Positions 3,295-37,360 of a DNA stretch of 41,648 nt are shown here, one piece after another. Positions within the stretch are counted from its first letter, which is position 1. The number at the start of each line of letters is the position of its first letter. Made by a program: the position numbers and the translations under genes. Under the pieces are notes generated by a model that saw only the letters and a program-made list of their open reading frames with translations, had not been told where the DNA came from and searched no databases. The stretch is from Candidatus Woesearchaeota archaeon (GTDB lineage Archaea > Nanobdellota > Nanobdellia > Woesearchaeales > GW2011-AR15). The stretch spans positions 1-41,648 of the forward strand of contig WJJD01000016.1 of NCBI GenBank assembly GCA_014729915.1, written 5' to 3'.

Positions 3295-3337
3295 ACAAAT
3301 CTGCTCTGAACCTGATCACAAAATCTATACTATTTAG
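3295..3337 (+). repeat. ~43-bp intergenic repeat element, copy B
   Basis: ACAAATCTGCTCTGAACCTGATCACAAAATCTATACTATTTAG. Confidence 0.75.
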
Positions 3338-3346
3338 ATTAATCCC

Positions 3347-3769
3347 TTATTTTTTTCCCTTTTCAAGATCATATACAGGTTTTTCTATCTCCTGCAGCCA
3401 CATCAGACCGATTCTCATCATGTCCTTGTTGAACTTGTTTGAGATTTTGTATTTTTTCGTATATAGATCGTAATTGACCATTCCCATGGATTTCATCGGA
3501 GTAAGAATCCTGTCATAGAACTGCCTTTTATTGTATGAGATCTTGACTTTTTTTCCCTTGAACGGAGCTTCGTCTAAAACACTGATAAGCTCTCCTTCAT
3601 GAAGTTTTGTAGCAAACAGACTCATCTCTGTTTTTCCGATTTCCCGGCCGTTCTCTTTCATGTATCTTATCAATAATTTTGCTACAATTTTCTGCTGTTT
3701 GGTCGAGAAAATAATCTCAAAAATATCTTCCGGCAGGTTATACCTGTCATACAAAATTACCATAAGCAC
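3347..3769 (-). CDS. hypothetical 140-aa protein, possible winged-helix DNA binder
   Basis: Intact ORF with a TATA-like TTTTTATAAT upstream, bracketed by an inverted 18-19 nt repeat (3314..3332 and 3820..3837). No family recognised. Confidence 0.5.
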   Translation of the reverse strand: MLMVILYDRYNLPEDIFEIIFSTKQQKIVAKLLIRYMKENGREIGKTEMSLFATKLHEGELISVLDEAPFKGKKVKISYNKRQFYDRILTPMKSMGMVNYDLYTKKYKISNKFNKDMMRIGLMWLQEIEKPVYDLEKGKK

Positions 3770-3812
3770 CCCCTAATATATATAGAAGTATATTACTATT
3801 ATAAAAATTTTT

Positions 3813-3850
3813 CCTATTTTAGTATAGATTTTGTATCAAAATTTGCTAAA
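3813..3850 (-). repeat. intergenic repeat element, partial inverted copy C
   Basis: The reverse complement contains GATACAAAATCTATACTA, matching the core GATCACAAAATCTATACTA of copy B. Confidence 0.65.
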
Positions 3851-7757: not shown

Positions 7758-8576
7758 ATGTCAATAATAAAAGCTATCAAAAAAACAAAATCCCTCCTCT
7801 CCTCATGCACTCTCTGCCCCAGAAGATGCAGAGTCAACCGGTTAAAAGGAGAAAAAGGCTTCTGCAGGGCAAAAACACAAGCAAGAATATTTGGTTCTCA
7901 TGTGCATTATGGTGAAGAGCCTGAACTTGTTCCCTCAGGAACATTATTTTTTGCAGGATGCACAATGCATTGTGTCTACTGCCAGAATGCGCCTGCTTCA
8001 GTAAACCCTGAATTAGGAGAGGGATGGTCTGATAAAAAAATTGGACAATGGATCAATAAAATATCAAAAAAATGTAAAAACATCAATTTTGTCTCACCAG
8101 ATGCCTATCTTTTAAATATCGCAGAATCCTTGAAATACAAACAATCAGACCTTCCTGTTGTCTGGAACTCTTCATCCTACTATTCAGAAGATGCTGCTGA
8201 TATTTTAAAAGAATTTGTTGACATCTATCTTCTGGACTTCAGGTATTTTTCTCAGAAATGCTCAGATAAATACAGCAATGCTCTCGGATATGTAAAAGCT
8301 GCAAAAAAAAATCATATCATAGCAAAAAAACATGGAAAACTTATTGTAAGATTACTAATTCTTCCCGACCATATTGACTGCTGTGCAAAACCTATTCTGA
8401 AATGGATAAGAAATAACTTAGGAAAAGATACAAGAATAAATATCATGGATCAGTATTATCCCTGCTATAAGGCAGAAAAATATCCTGAAATAGACAGGAG
8501 ATTAAGAACACAGGAATACATAGAAGTTTTAAAATATGCTAGGAGTCTGGGACTTGTGAATACGACCTGTAATTGA
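7758..8576 (+). CDS. radical SAM protein, PflX/COG1313-like (PFL-activase-related)
   Basis: An N-terminal Cys cluster CTLCPRRC...GFC is followed by the radical SAM motif AGCTMHCVYCQN. Confidence 0.75.
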   Translation: MSIIKAIKKTKSLLSSCTLCPRRCRVNRLKGEKGFCRAKTQARIFGSHVHYGEEPELVPSGTLFFAGCTMHCVYCQNAPASVNPELGEGWSDKKIGQWINKISKKCKNINFVSPDAYLLNIAESLKYKQSDLPVVWNSSSYYSEDAADILKEFVDIYLLDFRYFSQKCSDKYSNALGYVKAAKKNHIIAKKHGKLIVRLLILPDHIDCCAKPILKWIRNNLGKDTRINIMDQYYPCYKAEKYPEIDRRLRTQEYIEVLKYARSLGLVNTTCN

Positions 8577-12010: not shown

Positions 12011-12074
12011 GCCTGGGATAAAAAAAATTCTAAAAAACAAATTTTTGAACCTCCAGTTCATTTTTTGACAAAAA

Positions 12075-12165
12075 TGAGCCTGGAGGGATTTGAACCCCCG
12101 CCAGCCGGTCCGAAGCCGACCGCCCTTTCTGGTATGCAAATATATCCAGACTAGGCTACAGGCCC
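12075..12165 (-). tRNA. tRNA-Arg (anticodon TCG) with a ~16-nt insertion in the D-loop
   Basis: Hand-folded from the reverse complement. The acceptor GGGCCTG/CAGGCTC has discriminator A; the anticodon arm is GTCGG-CTTCGGA-CCGGC; the T arm is GGGGG-TTCAAAT-CCCTC. The D stem GCCT/GGGC encloses 27 nt instead of about 10. An oligo-T follows the 3' end and CCA is not encoded. Confidence 0.8.
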
Positions 12166-12187
12166 ATAAGTAGGAAAAAACTTGTTG

Positions 12188-17185: not shown

Positions 17186-17936
17186 ATAGTGTTAAAATTA
17201 GATATATTTTAAAAAATTAATTGAAAAAGACGAGTATTTAGTCTGGGAAAAACATAAATAAGGAAATTTTTTTGTTACTATTCACTGTTCAAGTAACTCC
17301 TCTATAAGTTATTTGCGTTTATAATAAAATTATTGAATAATCAAAAAGCTTGCTTTTTGTGTACTTCAAATTCTTTTTAGAATTTGTAGACCTAAAAATT
17401 TGTTTACAAATTTTAAGTACCAAAAATCCTTTTCTGATTTTTCAGTACCCATTACACGGAATGGGTTGTTGTACCCAAAGTCAATTCCCATTGATTAATA
17501 CCTCCATTGTTTTATGCATTTGTTCTTATAGAAAATTTTCAAATTATCCTTTTTTTTTGGATAATTTTAAATTTGCTTACGTAAAAAACTCTACTGCATT
17601 TTTTTGTACAAGAAAATACAAAGTATTGTCAAAGCTCATACCCTCCCACCAGTGAATCGCTTCACTCAACACTGGTGGAAAGCTTAAATTCTAGCTCATT
17701 CTTCATTTTTTTAATTTAAAAACTTGATTCTTAAGAAAAATCTTCTTGATGCTTCTACTTGCTCATCATTGTCAAATCCTAAAACTTCGCAGGCATATTG
17801 CCTCATTCGATCTTGAATTAAATCTTTAAGTCTAACTAAACAAGTTCTTGGGTGGGATTTCACAATCTATTTACTTCTTGTATTATGACAAATTAATTTA
17901 GTTACATTTATATATAAGTTCATCTTTAAATAAAGT

Positions 17937-18368
17937 ATGAAAAAAATCAAACTAAAAAAAAAAGAAAAAAAATTTCTAAAAGAATATATTAGTAAAGGAA
18001 AAAAGAAAGCAAGATCAATTGCAAGAGCAAATGTACTGCTCTTACTTGATCAAAGATGGGACAACAAAAGTATTACTGCAAGTACAGGACTACATAGGCA
18101 AAGCATATGGAGAATTAAAAAAAGATATCTTAAAGAAGGAATAAAATCAGCAATAACTGAGAAACCAAGACCTGGTCAACCAAAGAAATATTCAAAAAAA
18201 GATAAAGCCACACTAATAGCAACAGCATGCAGTGATCCTCCCAAAGGTAGAAAAAGATGGACAGTTAGGTTGTTAGCAAAGGAAATGCGAGAAAAAGAAG
18301 GGATGAAAACTATGAATCGTGAAACAGTACGTTTAATTCTAAAAAAAACAAAACAAAACCTTGGTTGA
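17937..18368 (+). CDS. IS630-family transposase, N-terminal HTH part
   Basis: The HTH/winged-helix region ends in an A-rich slippery run (AAAAAAAACAAAACAAAACC). Confidence 0.7.
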   Translation: MKKIKLKKKEKKFLKEYISKGKKKARSIARANVLLLLDQRWDNKSITASTGLHRQSIWRIKKRYLKEGIKSAITEKPRPGQPKKYSKKDKATLIATACSDPPKGRKRWTVRLLAKEMREKEGMKTMNRETVRLILKKTKQNLG

Positions 18369-18862
18369 AAAAAAGATGGTGTATACCAAAATTAACACCC
18401 GAATTTAAGAGAAGAATGTATGATATTCTCGATCTTTATGAAACACCATACGATCCAAAAAACCCCGTAATTGTAATTGATGAAAAACCTATTCAATTAA
18501 TAGATCATATAAGAAAACCAATTCCTACAAAACAGGGAAAGATTGCTAAACAAGATTATGAATATAAAAGAAATGGTACAGCAAATATTTTTATTGGTGT
18601 TGAATTCAAAGCAGGAAAAAGAATTACAAAAGATACAAAGATAAGAACAAAAAAACATTATGCGCGATTTGCCAAAAGAGATTACACCTTAGAAGTGCAT
18701 GTTGACCACTTAATGCAAATTACTAGTGGAAGTATAGTATTTTATGATCCTGAAACACAACACAAGAGAGGAAGAAGAGATAAAATGAACAGAAGTGAGT
18801 TAATAGATCAGGCAGGGAAACTTGGGATGGATGAACACAACTTATTACCTTTCAAAGAATGA
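18365..18862 (+). pseudogene. IS630-family transposase, DDE part, truncated
   Basis: The (L)KKRWCIP...VIVIDEKP...YEYKRNGTANIF core is present. The C-terminal third of the catalytic domain is replaced by unrelated sequence. Confidence 0.65.
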
Positions 18863-27681: not shown

Positions 27682-27707
27682 AAAAAGTGAACTTGTGTTC
27701 ACTTTTT
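27682..27707. terminator. perfect A5-stem-T5 palindromic hairpin between rnp2 and psmA
   Basis: AAAAAGTGAAC-TTGT-GTTCACTTTTT has an 11-bp perfect stem and abuts the rnp2 stop codon. A second hairpin, ATGGGTT...AACCCAT, lies at 27641..27673. Confidence 0.5.
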
Positions 27708-28054
27708 TATAAATATCTTGATTTAGCTTTTTTAATCATACCGGATACTCCGATACAATTGATTATAACTTTAATGTTGTCAATCTTTTTTATTATTGAT
27801 AAACTGAAACGGACCTGGTCAACAAATTTATGATTTACCCGAATCATTCCTCTCTTAAGGTCTTTATTAAAATTCTCTTTGAGAACAACTATTCCTGCTC
27901 TACCCAATCCAATTGATCCAAATAGTTTTTCAAATGAGTCAAGAATTTTCTTGTAAATCTTTTTCTCTGGAATTTTTTTTTCAGATATGATTTCAAAGAC
28001 CATATACCTTTTTTTCTCTTTTAAAGAGGGTAAAAGAGGTTTATTTGCTTTCAT
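27707..28054 (-). CDS. rnp2: RNase P protein component 2 (Pop5 homologue)
   Basis: LPSLKEKKRYMVFEI...GMIRVNHKFVD...INCIGVSGMIKKAK closely parallels archaeal Pop5/Rnp2. It is the first gene of the superoperon. Confidence 0.85.
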   Translation of the reverse strand: MKANKPLLPSLKEKKRYMVFEIISEKKIPEKKIYKKILDSFEKLFGSIGLGRAGIVVLKENFNKDLKRGMIRVNHKFVDQVRFSLSIIKKIDNIKVIINCIGVSGMIKKAKSRYL

Positions 28055-28189
28055 TATAATTTTAATGGAGAAATATCATTCTTCTTTTTTCTCTCCCGAT
28101 ATTTTGGATTATTAAGATATTTATAAAAGTTACTGAGAATGAATTGAAAAAACTTATATATTTTTATTATTTAAGTAAAAATTTGAAAA

Positions 28190-34749: not shown

Positions 34750-34881
34750 TATAGAGAACTTTGAATTACCTATAGAGAACTTTGAATTATCTATAAATTG
34801 ATCTCTATTTTCAGATGTTTATAGAGAATAATTCAAAGTTCTTCTTAAAGAATTTTGATGTTTTTCAAAATTCTCTATACC
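34750..34881. repeat. TATAGAGAA-box repeat cluster (21-nt tandem repeat x2 plus inverted partial copies)
   Basis: TATAGAGAACTTTGAATTA(C/T)C occurs at 34750 and 34771. The 13-nt inverse TAATTCAAAGTTC is at 34829..34841. TATAGAGAAT at 34820 pairs with ATTCTCTATA at 34870. Confidence 0.85.
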
Positions 34882-34888
34882 TTTAGAA

Positions 34889-36223
34889 TCAGGATCTGAT
34901 GATCTTGAGAACTTCAATTTTCTTTTCTTCCATGAGTTTCTTAGTATCAGCTTCAAGATTCAGCCTTAGCAAAGGTTCAGTGTTGCTGGGCCTAACATTA
35001 AACCACCAGGAATCAAATTCAATCGAAATGCCGTCAAGATAAAATATTTTTTTGGCATCTTTGTATTTTTCAGCAAGCTCTTTTATTTTTTCCTGTTTGT
35101 CATCAACTTCTGAATTTATTTCTCCTGTTGCATAATATTTATTTAATGGTTCAATTAATTCGGATAGCGTCTTTTCCTTTTTTGTGATTAATTCAAGTAT
35201 CCTTAAAATTATGAAGAATGGAGATTCAAAATAATAATTGTCTTTGAGATAAAAGTGTCCTGAAAGCTCTCCTGCAAATATTGCTTCTTCTTTTCTCATC
35301 TTCTCTTTTATAAAAGAATGGCCCACCCTGGTTATTATGGGCCAGCCTTTGTTTTTTTCAATGATTTCAGGTACTATTTTGCTTGATCTTAAATCATATA
35401 AAATCTTTAACTTCGGGGTCTCTTGTAACAAGTCTTGGGCGATTAAGGCAGTAATCTTGTCACTGCCGATTGTGTTAGTCTTTTCATCAACAAAAAACAG
35501 CCTGTCTGCATCTCCGTCCCAAGCAATACCAAAGTCCGCTTTTTCTTTTATTATAAGTTTTTTTAAATCTTTTAGGTTTTCTTCTTTTAGAGGATTTGCT
35601 TCATGGTTCGGAAAATTTCCATCCAGCTCAGAATAAAGAGGAACTATTTCACAATTTAGGTGGGGAAAAAATTTTTTTCCAATCAATGCACCCATACCGT
35701 TTCCGTAATCAACAGCAATTTTTAATTTTTTTAGTTTTTTAATTGTCTGAAAACTTAGTCCATTTAAGATATAATCCTGAAGAATATCTGTTCTCTGCTC
35801 AATTATTCCTCGATCTTTATTCTGGGCAAAATTCTTATTTTTTACGATTTTTTCAATGTCTTTGATTCCTGTTTTCCCGCTTAATGGAATAGCTTTTTCT
35901 CTTACAAATTTAAATCCGTTGTATTGTTTTGGGTTGTGAGAAGCTGTAATCATGATACCTGCATCATAACCGAATTTAGAAACAGCAAAATACATCATCG
36001 GTGTCGATGAAAGACCAATTGATATCACATCTCTTCCCTGATCAAGAATGCCTTCTATTAATGCCTCTTCAAGTTCATTTGATGAGTCCCGCATATCTTT
36101 TGCAACAACCACATTTTTACAGTCAAGAAATGTAACAAATGCACGTCCAATTTTATATGCTATTTCCTTATTTAGCTGGTCAGGATATGTTCCCCTGACA
36201 TCATAGGCTTTAAAGATTGACAT
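34889..36223 (-). CDS. phosphomannomutase/phosphoglucomutase (alpha-D-phosphohexomutase)
   Basis: It has the active-site loop ITASHNPKQYNGFK and the metal loop AWDGDADR. The sugar loop is GELSGH. Confidence 0.88.
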   Translation of the reverse strand: MSIFKAYDVRGTYPDQLNKEIAYKIGRAFVTFLDCKNVVVAKDMRDSSNELEEALIEGILDQGRDVISIGLSSTPMMYFAVSKFGYDAGIMITASHNPKQYNGFKFVREKAIPLSGKTGIKDIEKIVKNKNFAQNKDRGIIEQRTDILQDYILNGLSFQTIKKLKKLKIAVDYGNGMGALIGKKFFPHLNCEIVPLYSELDGNFPNHEANPLKEENLKDLKKLIIKEKADFGIAWDGDADRLFFVDEKTNTIGSDKITALIAQDLLQETPKLKILYDLRSSKIVPEIIEKNKGWPIITRVGHSFIKEKMRKEEAIFAGELSGHFYLKDNYYFESPFFIILRILELITKKEKTLSELIEPLNKYYATGEINSEVDDKQEKIKELAEKYKDAKKIFYLDGISIEFDSWWFNVRPSNTEPLLRLNLEADTKKLMEEKKIEVLKIIRS

Positions 36224-36308
36224 AGCTTTTTTATAATTTGTTAAGAATATTAAAATCTTTCGTTAGTAAGTAAATAGAAAGTCAGATACGGAAAATGGAG
36301 TTTTTTTT

Positions 36309-36470
36309 GTTAACATATTAAGTTGAAAAATTTTCGTTGAATGTCCAAGATGAAATTTTTTTTGACATTTTACATTCATCTTTTGCTGATTAATAGACAA
36401 TAAGAATAAGAAACATTCCGAAAATGGCAAAAAAAACCAGCATTCAACGGAAAGTCTATTCAATGTTAAC
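36309..36470. repeat. long-range inverted repeat (GTTAACAT...CGTTGAATG / CATTCAACG...ATGTTAAC)
   Basis: The arms at 36309..36343 and 36441..36470 share perfect 8-nt outer and 9-nt inner complementary blocks. Confidence 0.8.
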
Positions 36471-36496
36471 TAAAAAAATTTTCCATTGTACACATA

Positions 36497-36785
36497 AAAA
36501 ATCACAAGGTGATTTTTGGGCTTGAGAAATTTTGGATTTCCCAAATGTCGGAAATCCAAAGATTTCTGAGCACAGTCAAAAATCGCTTGGGCGATTTTCG
36601 ATGTGTTGGAAATGTTTTACATTTCTAATCATCGTCAGGAACCTTAATAAATCTGTCTGTCGGTTCCTGAGATGTCGGCAATCGGAGATTGCTGAGCATC
36701 ATCAGAAAAACGAAGTTTTTCCGAGATGTCGGAAACCCAAAGGTTTCTGAGCACAGTCAAAAATCGCTTGGGCGATTTTCGATGT
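36497..36785. repeat. tandem array of ~10 alternating stem-loops with conserved stem bases and linkers (candidate structured RNA)
   Basis: Hairpins: B0 36497..36517, A0 36526..36540, A1 36548..36569, B1 36576..36601, A2 36606..36628, B2 36635..36670, A3 36675..36695, B3 36702..36724, A4 36729..36750, B4 36757..36782. Compensatory pair changes occur between units. Confidence 0.85.
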
Positions 36786-36810
36786 TTTCCTCTGATTTTC
36801 TATTTATGTT

Positions 36811-36840
36811 ATTAAATTTCTTCTGATGAAGAAATTTAAT
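36811..36840. terminator. perfect 13-bp hairpin downstream of the 36896..37360 gene
   Basis: ATTAAATTTCTTC-TGAT-GAAGAAATTTAAT. On the minus strand, T-rich runs separate it from the gene's stop codon. Confidence 0.5.
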
Positions 36841-36895
36841 TAGAGTGGGGTGTTTGGCTCCTATAAAAATCTGAAAAAGTCAAGAAAAAACTTTT

Positions 36896-37360
36896 TCATA
36901 TTTTTATAATAATTGTTTTGTCTTCAAGTTCAGCTTCATCAAGAATCTGCTTTTTTTTTAATTTATTTACATATCTGTAAAATGTTGCTTTTGAACATAA
37001 TCTGTCTTCTTCAATAATAATGTCTCTAATTTCAGGAAGAGTTAGATTTCTTTTGTTAGCTAACTCTATGATTCTATTTTTTATTATGTATTTTTTATTT
37101 CTTTTTATTTTTCTATAAACCTTTTTTTTGTAAGGATCTTCTTGTTTTATATTTTTTATTGTTTCTGAAACAATTTCTTTTATTGTATTCTGGTCCAACG
37201 AACTGTTTTTTAGTTCTTTTCGAAGATTAATGTTTTCTTCTAATACACGCTTGTGTTCTTTTTTTAATTCAAGAAGTTCCTGATTCAGTTCTCTGATATC
37301 TTTTTTAATTTTTTCAAATGAATTTTTAAGAAGCTTCTTGTCAATATTTCCCCCACTCAT
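36896..37360 (-). CDS. coiled-coil protein with C-terminal HTH-like domain, unknown family
   Basis: The N-terminal heptad-rich region is IRELNQELLELKKEHKRVLEENINLRKEL. The C-terminal region is LTLPEIRDIIIEEDRLCSKATFYRYVNKLKKKQIL. Confidence 0.55.
   Translation of the reverse strand: MSGGNIDKKLLKNSFEKIKKDIRELNQELLELKKEHKRVLEENINLRKELKNSSLDQNTIKEIVSETIKNIKQEDPYKKKVYRKIKRNKKYIIKNRIIELANKRNLTLPEIRDIIIEEDRLCSKATFYRYVNKLKKKQILDEAELEDKTIIIKI

Follow-up and report, generated by a model that had tools for sequence, protein, structure and literature searches.

Results

Genomic context and features of the array

The window, that is, the whole stretch of 41,648 nucleotides that we analysed, has a GC content of 32% and codes for TFIIE, GINS, exosome and proteasome subunits and Rpp14. 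The nearest relatives of its proteins carry the labels Woesearchaeota or Nanoarchaeota, and the organism is a DPANN-type archaeon. Our analysis concerns the 672-bp gap at 36224–36895, which is bounded by the start of a PGM/PMM gene on one side and by the stop of an HTH-like gene on the other. It contains a run of hairpins, and no comparable run is found in the rest of the 41.6-kb window. The features are as follows.

34889–36223, minus strand: PGM/PMM gene, with the gap at its start
36262–36269, no strand: putative target-site duplication (TSD), left, GTTAGTAA; 7/8 match to 36808–36815
36271–36286, no strand: left terminal inverted repeat (TIR), TAAATAGAAAGTCAGA; 15/16 complementary to 36791–36806
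36289–36487, no strand: nested long imperfect inverted repeat of ~190 nt, inside the TIR-bounded element and adjoining the array; a single long hairpin, z = −5.0 as DNA
36497–36517, plus strand: degenerate hairpin B0, AAAAATCAC-aag-GTGATTTTT, TC/GA closing pairs absent
about 36515–36545, plus strand: degenerate hairpin A0, only loosely hairpin-like
36546–36601, plus strand: unit 1, TG + A1 (36548–36569) + GCACAG + B1 (36576–36601); 71 bits with covariance model R1
36604–36670, plus strand: unit 2, TG + A2 (36606–36628, TTGG..CTAA) + TCATCG + B2 (36635–36670, 18-nt loop)
36673–36724, plus strand: unit 3, TG + A3 (36675–36695) + GCATCA + B3 (36702–36724); included in the unit alignment
36727–36782, plus strand: unit 4, TG + A4 (36729–36750) + GCACAG + B4 (36757–36782); 66.9 bits with R1
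36791–36806, no strand: right TIR, TCTGATTTTCTATTTA; partner of 36271–36286
36808–36815, no strand: putative TSD, right, GTTATTAA; partner of 36262–36269
36896–37360, minus strand: HTH-like gene (154 aa), with the gap at its stop

Four complete two-hairpin units lie within 36546–36782, with two degenerate hairpins upstream. All eight clear hairpins (A1–A4 and B1–B4) are found where a first-pass annotation of this DNA had placed them; their stems are 9–11 bp long and their loops mostly 3–4 nt. The degenerate B0 and A0 copies that it reported upstream are present at 36497–36545, and the linkers read as it gave them: GCACAG, TCATCG, GCATCA and GCACAG after the A hairpins, and TGTG, GATG and GATG after the B hairpins. 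A base-by-base check also bears out the compensatory changes it listed, from T36555-A36562 in A1 to C36736-G36743 in A4 and from A36504-T36510 in B0 to G36585-C36592 in B1, as well as the replacement of the conserved C-G by T36607-A36627 in A2. The repeat it described at an offset of 181 nt is real and 71 nt long: unit 4 is a near copy of unit 1 (36537–36607 versus 36718–36788, 93% identity).

Two of its statements have to be revised. The hairpins had been divided into two classes, A and B, but there is in fact one hairpin type: read on the minus strand, the B hairpins of the window have a TCGR...YTGA base and a G.T at stem position 3, just like the A hairpins on the plus strand. In the window the two therefore alternate in their asymmetry, A with a G.T and B with an A.C at stem position 3. 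In other contigs B is fully symmetric, so that its orientation is undefined there. The stem tops had been said to differ completely between units; the differences affect only one to three positions. Folding of 36490–36800 is far beyond chance on both strands (z = −9.3 and −10.1 against dinucleotide shuffles).

Other structures lie outside the array. A T-rich stretch (36870–36895) lies between it and the HTH stop codon. A perfect 13-bp hairpin, ATTAAATTTCTTC-tgat-GAAGAAATTTAAT (36811–36840), is found ~55 nt downstream of that stop; it overlaps the putative right target duplication and has no sequence relationship to the hairpins of the array. Two more hairpins, TCTATAAAT...ATTTATAGA and TCAAAGTTCTT...AAGAATTTTGA, lie at 34790–34858 between the convergent PMM and TFIIE genes. 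They match R1 weakly (15.6 bits, E = 0.05) and are probably unrelated 3′-end structures.

The enclosing element and the syntenic gap in relatives

The array lies in an element of ~537 bp (36270–36807) that has no ORF and is bounded by a 16-nt TIR (15/16) with an adjoining 8-bp direct repeat. The two copies of the putative TSD, GTTAGTAA and GTTATTAA, agree at 7/8 positions, which is weak evidence taken alone (null frequency 0.06); their offset from the TIR (−1/+1) is identical to the geometry of the F1 MITE family discussed below. The window contains about six inverted repeats comparable to the 16-nt TIR, whose specificity is moderate. Among the sequences compared there is no second copy of the TIR or of the ~537-bp element. 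The nested inverted repeat at 36289–36487 lacks a target duplication, and no further copy of it occurs among the same sequences.

Three distant relatives have kept the gene order HIT, HTH, PMM (L004 and L005 also TFIIE beyond PMM), and only 42–56 bp lie between their HTH and PMM genes. Judged from this comparison, the gap is lineage-specific extra DNA because the relatives have so little there. Excising the ~537-bp element together with one copy of the repeat would leave a spacer of 126 bp, with the promoter-like TTATAAAAAAG still in front of the PMM start. The first-pass annotation had named a lack of homologous arrays in relatives as an outcome that would speak against a functional folded element. 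At the syntenic site this is what the three relatives show; homologous units elsewhere do exist and keep their pairing. The HTH gene has its closest relative (49% identity) in L149, a contig that breaks off at 2752, 9 nt past the HTH stop codon and thus at the position of the insertion in the window. A repeat that breaks the assembly would fit this, and as it stands the contig end is uninformative.

One could argue that the element, although mobile in origin, has been exapted and now separates the HTH gene from the PMM promoter as a bidirectional terminator or insulator. It directly follows the HTH gene and lies upstream of the promoter-like sequence, it offers T-runs on both strands (TTTTTGA arms, with T4–T6 runs in the B arms), and REPs and MITEs have been reported to take part in termination and mRNA stabilisation (PMC3733652, PMC10969869). 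We nevertheless consider such a role quite unlikely. In the relatives a spacer of 42–56 bp suffices, and copies of the unit that lie in coding regions (see below) cannot terminate transcription. Moreover, archaeal termination requires oligo-T only.

Several further features of the window deserve mention. The region 17937–18368 codes for HTH_23/29/32 domains and is overlapped by an ORF at 18365–18862 with a weak DDE_3 match (E = 0.001), which together have the appearance of an IS630-type transposase that was split or has decayed. The 750 nt before it (17186–17936) are non-coding and contain several hairpins, for example CCACCAGTG...CACTGGTGG at 17647–17679. We rejected this transposase as the mobiliser of the 537-bp element: IS630 elements produce TA duplications, and the duplication here is 8 bp long. 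Inverted repeats of at least 16 nt bracket a single small gene in two places. At 3317–3835 this is an ORF of 140 aa without a Pfam match (3347–3769), and at 27704–28129 it is the Rpp14/Pop5 gene (27707–28054), with TATA-like arms TTTTTATAAATATCTTGATT / AATTAAGATATTTATAAAAG. Both brackets could mark additional mobile cassettes, or they could be promoter/terminator regions with a symmetric layout. Finally, ARAGORN calls a 93-nt 'tRNA-???' with undetermined anticodon on the minus strand at 12074–12166, where, as in the whole window, the Rfam tRNA model finds nothing at its gathering score. The call may be false, or it may reflect a tRNA that is atypical or contains an intron.

A family of two-hairpin units in archaeal contigs

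Outside the window the unit is found mainly in metagenomes. When we scanned species-representative genomes with a 38-bit sequence pattern, matches stayed at chance level except for one true A-B pair in the archaeal MAG contig L031. In metagenome contigs a 41-bit pattern matched 58 loci, whereas about 5 were expected, and both hairpins are intact in ~45 of the 58, even though the pattern left out the 3′ arm of hairpin B. In archaeal metagenome contigs the unit occupies more than 40 sites. Its consensus is 5′-TG-[TCRGAAA..TTTCYGA]-GCAYRR-[TCARAAA..TTTYTGA]-CA-3′. This is nearly two-fold symmetric (RTG-[hp]-GCATGA-[hp]-CAY), and R1 scores on both strands. The conserved single-stranded parts are the RTG flank and the GCAYRR linker.

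Pairing is maintained across the family. Among 23 distinct units, 98.3% of the cells are paired, compared to 30–61% in slid controls; both sides have changed in 8 of the 18 pairs, and 0 of 500 shuffles reach the observed values. The view that compensatory changes preserve the pairing, first put forward for the array, thus extends to many independent copies. R1 recovers more divergent copies on the contigs found with the pattern (2–4 copies per contig, often with TCAG...CTGA). The hairpins form a genuine family with conserved stem bases and linkers. The invariance of those parts of hairpin A that the pattern fixed is an effect of ascertainment. For the same reason we discarded a strand call based on an apparently invariant G.U in hairpin A, where the pattern itself had forced TCGG..CTGA. 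A micro-ORF starting at the conserved ATG was dropped as well, because loop lengths vary and the frame is not conserved. Viral carriage was rejected too: two scans of viral contigs and an R1 search yielded no genuine copy.

The unit shows mixed orientation relative to neighbouring genes and no conserved promoter distance, and no conserved insertion target was seen. Toxin-antitoxin-like pairs of MNT (a Polbeta nucleotidyltransferase with wHTH) and HEPN adjoin copies in L054 (3623–5922) and L064 (305–916); in the latter, 5 nt separate the end of the unit from the MNT-like ORF that follows. This proximity may be coincidence or a preferred neighbourhood.

The array contains at least 16 similar TCRGAAA half-sites in alternating orientation, and GINS and other replication genes lie nearby. 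Both would suit an array of binding sites in duplex DNA (operators, iterons or an origin element) for a dimer that recognises these half-sites. The spacing of the half-sites is hard to reconcile with such a dimer. Across copies, the two arms of a hairpin are separated by 3 to more than 40 nt and the intervening bases are still complementary, which a duplex-binding dimer would not need; a simple dimer site is therefore excluded, and recognition of an extruded hairpin is indicated. In addition, copies lie in coding sequence and in MITEs, and the site has neither a GC-skew switch nor an Orc1/Cdc6 gene. We regard a binding-site array as very improbable.

Insertion, MITEs and filled and empty sites

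In 17 contigs of one sample set the unit is part of a common 150-nt repeat with sharp ends and unrelated flanks. Contig ends lie within 130 nt of a copy in 12 of 38 contigs, where 2.9 would be expected (P about 1.5e-5); copies of the unit break assemblies. In peat metagenomes the unit lies inside elements of 156–244 nt. All seven of these elements have TIRs of 13–14 bp and flanking direct repeats of 7–10 bp (null 0–0.036); the element in L086, for example, has GCGCACTAA as a direct repeat on both sides. With these TIRs and direct repeats, the peat elements are MITEs. Two families in related contigs, F1 and F2, have all the hallmarks of MITEs: a TIR, a TSD, multiple copies and no ORF. Overall, a TIR with a TSD brackets 9/35 modules, compared to 4/164 control positions.

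At least two families of MITEs, whose TIRs are unrelated and whose target duplications measure 8–9 bp, share the unit. In one family, two sites just within the TIRs are occupied by the unit in some copies and vacant in others, and the unit has no duplication of its own there. Three comparisons of filled and empty sites gave the same result: there is no duplication, the flanks differ (GGAG^, TAGCA^, TAGC^) and no fixed target is evident. The MITE site that an A-B unit occupies in L071 and L053 contains two other hairpins, CAAAGAAATKC...GMATTTCTTG and AAGAAATTCC...GGAATTTCTT, in L044 (~8490–8547) and at the equivalent positions of L056 and L086. This hints at a larger set of hairpin cassettes that can replace one another.

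The window encodes no Y1/HUH (PF01797-type) protein. Among the 25 commonest of 115 families (150 ORFs of contigs that carry the unit, from partial genomes), no recurrent family, that is, one with at least two members, is a Y1/HUH protein, a transposase, a reverse transcriptase, Cas or TnpB.

In-frame copies inside genes

Some copies lie in frame within genes. They are on the opposite strand and always in the same frame, so that the peptide reads S-E/K-x..SD-x-AQK-xxx-SD. The host genes encode an O6-alkylguanine-DNA methyltransferase (MGMT; PF01035, E = 1.6e-20), with the unit in the active-site loop, a glycosyltransferase, with the unit in an inter-domain linker, and two low-complexity proteins. 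For the glycosyltransferase (L058), the comparison with the PDB does not cover the insert region. The MGMT copies are the following.

L069, 1884–2309, minus strand: MGMT with an 18–22-residue in-frame insert directly before the PCHR motif
L151, 697–1065: MGMT with an 18–22-residue in-frame insert directly before the PCHR motif
L152, 1501–1887: MGMT with an 18–22-residue in-frame insert directly before the PCHR motif

The insert lengthens the distance from NPY to VPCHRV to 21 residues, compared to 3 in the solved structure 1mgt_A. It is shared by three orthologues that are 62–72% identical, while seven homologues are empty and read NPY-A-PxVPCHRV: the 54-nt TG...CA unit splits the Ala codon beside the active site. 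In all three orthologues the DNA of the unit is intact and both hairpins are perfect, and their stem tops differ. Two of the three came from protein homology and are hence independent of the DNA pattern.

DNA or RNA

A functional structured RNA is the alternative that deserves most attention. It could be a transcribed multi-hairpin sRNA or scaffold, or a two-hairpin module for protein binding or processing that MITEs carry along. Covariation is strong, the folding z-scores are extreme, the flank and the linker are conserved although single-stranded, and hairpins with different stem tops persist in three MGMT orthologues. Such an RNA would be new. A search of the gap, the whole window and 16 homologous loci with Rfam 15 found nothing near the gathering score; the best matches in the gap reach 25 bits, where 50–83 are required. 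This confirms the earlier observation that the hairpins do not match hammerhead, twister, pistol, C/D, H/ACA, SRP or RNase P patterns.

The composition of the stems points away from RNA. In ~366 unconstrained cells there is one G.U, and 713/714 pairs outside stem position 3 are Watson-Crick. Stems this close to pure Watson-Crick pairing are expected of a palindrome that is constrained on both strands and are unusual for a diverged, AT-rich family of RNA helices. Neither strand folds better than the other, and the two-fold symmetry lets the unit score on both. Mixed orientation and variable promoter distance, insertion polymorphism, enrichment at contig ends, carriage by MITEs, in-frame insertion into unrelated genes and the missing array in the syntenic gap of three relatives all count against a functional RNA as well. 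A dedicated structured-RNA gene is less likely because the hairpins are copies of a mobile repeat that recurs in MITEs, in intergenic regions and in genes. Overall, we judge a structured RNA to be improbable, yet the strongest of the alternatives.

The candidates named in the first-pass annotation included a multi-hairpin sRNA, a scaffold and a leader of the PMM gene. These proposals are not supported, given the dispersal of the unit in many copies, its carriage by MITEs and its occurrence in frame and in mixed orientation; that the gap is extra DNA, that G.U pairs are nearly absent and that both strands fold equally well speaks against them too. Its other suggestion, an ssDNA element or a processing signal, comes closer to what the evidence favours.

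Several known identities were also considered and rejected. The 200–250-nt units of L044, L053 and others resemble CR-I/CR-V of RNase P RNA, but Rfam finds nothing at E<=10 (0 matches for the L044 unit at this permissive threshold), and the supposed P1 helix proved to be a TIR flanked by target duplications. In the Ga0209541 contigs the repeat has a sharp boundary that suggests an IS end, but an omega-RNA, TnpB or IscB end was rejected: the repeat is only ~150 nt long and no such genes are nearby. A C/D box K-turn (GAUG/CUGA), a bulge-helix-bulge intron and a hammerhead are by eye incompatible with 9-bp stems, and Rfam is negative for them. A CRISPR array can be dismissed as well, since the hairpins differ from each other, the linkers are 4–6 nt long, TRF finds no array and the window has no cas genes.

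Discussion

Our results show a discrete, multi-copy insertion unit in DPANN-type contigs that is present or absent at defined sites, both in MITEs and in MGMT. We think that the array is probably a tandem cluster of a selfish palindromic insertion element of DPANN archaea, similar to REPs and Rickettsia palindromic elements (RPEs). Four copies of its palindrome of ~50–60 nt would then be intact and two decayed, with all four arms of the unit being versions of TCRGAAA(Y). The MITE-like insertion of ~537 bp (36270–36807) would have landed between the HTH gene and the PMM promoter. Units 1 and 4 are apart by one compensatory pair, and the tandem arrangement may have arisen through segmental duplication (units 1 and 4), through insertion beside resident copies, or through both.

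How the element might move is a separate question. It may be selfish DNA that spreads by way of a single-stranded hairpin intermediate, with an enzyme supplied in trans that would read the conserved stem foot and the flanking and linker nucleotides, as HUH/Y1 enzymes do at REPs and at the ends of IS200/IS605 elements. A mechanism of this kind would explain why pairing in the stem tops is kept over sequence and why there is no target duplication. Supposing that the element is selfish, we give an HUH-like single-stranded mechanism somewhat less than an even chance. Several observations count against a selfish element: no mobiliser is found among the genes examined, the element in the window is single-copy in the sequences compared, its TIR and TSD are modest evidence when taken separately, no conserved insertion target is seen, and the hairpins stay perfect in the diverged MGMT orthologues. 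The dispersal of the unit rests on related contigs, where it is multi-copy.

REPs occur in many, clustered copies; each is a short, imperfect palindrome whose stem foot is conserved and whose stem is maintained by compensatory changes (PMC2817692, PMC3733652). The unit resembles REPs and BIMEs in its conserved stem foot and flanks, in its mostly intergenic copies, in the lack of a target duplication, in the compensatory upkeep of its stems and perhaps, judged from the window, in regularly spaced clusters with alternating asymmetry. In related contigs it is a short palindrome with many, mostly extragenic copies, as REPs are. It differs in having RTG 5′ and CA/TG 3′ as its flank and no GTAG or CGTC tag, in being a hairpin pair with a conserved 6-nt linker and AT-rich stems in an archaeal host, and in occurring in MITEs and genes, too. 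REPs are mobilised by RAYT, an HUH/Y1 transposase, whereas no RAYT (Y1/HUH) gene occurs in the window or recurs in the 25 commonest of the 115 families.

RPEs are selfish elements that are found, and tolerated, in frame in unrelated protein genes (PMC10969869). Our unit also lies in frame in conserved genes with filled and empty homologues, as in MGMT. However, RPEs are ~100–150 bp long and bacterial, whereas the unit has ~50–60 nt and occurs in tandem arrays and inside MITEs. MITEs that contain tandem repeats are known as well, for example DTC84 of Donax trunculus (PMC3879986). The 537-bp element of the window is similar, with its TIR, putative 8-bp TSD, internal short tandem repeats and no ORF, but its internal unit inserts independently and is common to MITEs with unrelated TIRs, and the element itself is known as a single copy only. 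Among archaea, MITEs are densest in DPANN genomes, one of them Woesearchaeal (PMC11602168). The non-autonomous elements derived from IS200/IS605 (PATEs) share with the unit two similar hairpins on one strand and the absence of TIR-dependent duplication. IS608 and ISDra2 act in single-stranded form. Unlike in PATEs, no conserved tetra- or pentanucleotide target is evident 5′ of the insertions of the unit and no TnpA/TnpB lies nearby, and the unit is far smaller. We know of no self-contained insertion unit smaller than ~54 nt.

Our literature search found no published description of the two-hairpin unit, and no archaeal equivalent that is carried by several families of MITEs, occurs as tandem arrays and also lies in frame beside an active site. 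The perfect hairpins in MGMT orthologues that have diverged to 62–72% identity leave room for selection on structure, which could act at the RNA level and go beyond selfish spread. The unit could even represent an undescribed class of archaeal mobile palindrome, which some enzyme would move and whose structure would be actively selected, but this is a tentative idea that we would not favour at present. If it were true, perfect pairing in the MGMT loop would mean one of two things: the unit keeps re-inserting or homing in a site-specific manner, or its hairpins have a function as RNA or ssDNA.

REP- and RPE-type palindromic elements have been described mainly in bacteria. For annotation, our results mean that an apparent structured-RNA locus can be explained as repeat DNA, and they are a reminder that covariation alone cannot separate functional RNAs from palindromic selfish DNA. 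The covariance model and the consensus can be used to flag the unit across DPANN metagenomes, where its copies fragment assemblies and lengthen proteins. The results also raise the question of which enzyme moves the unit. For the proteins that carry it, the unit provides a natural experiment on how insertions of 18 residues are tolerated.
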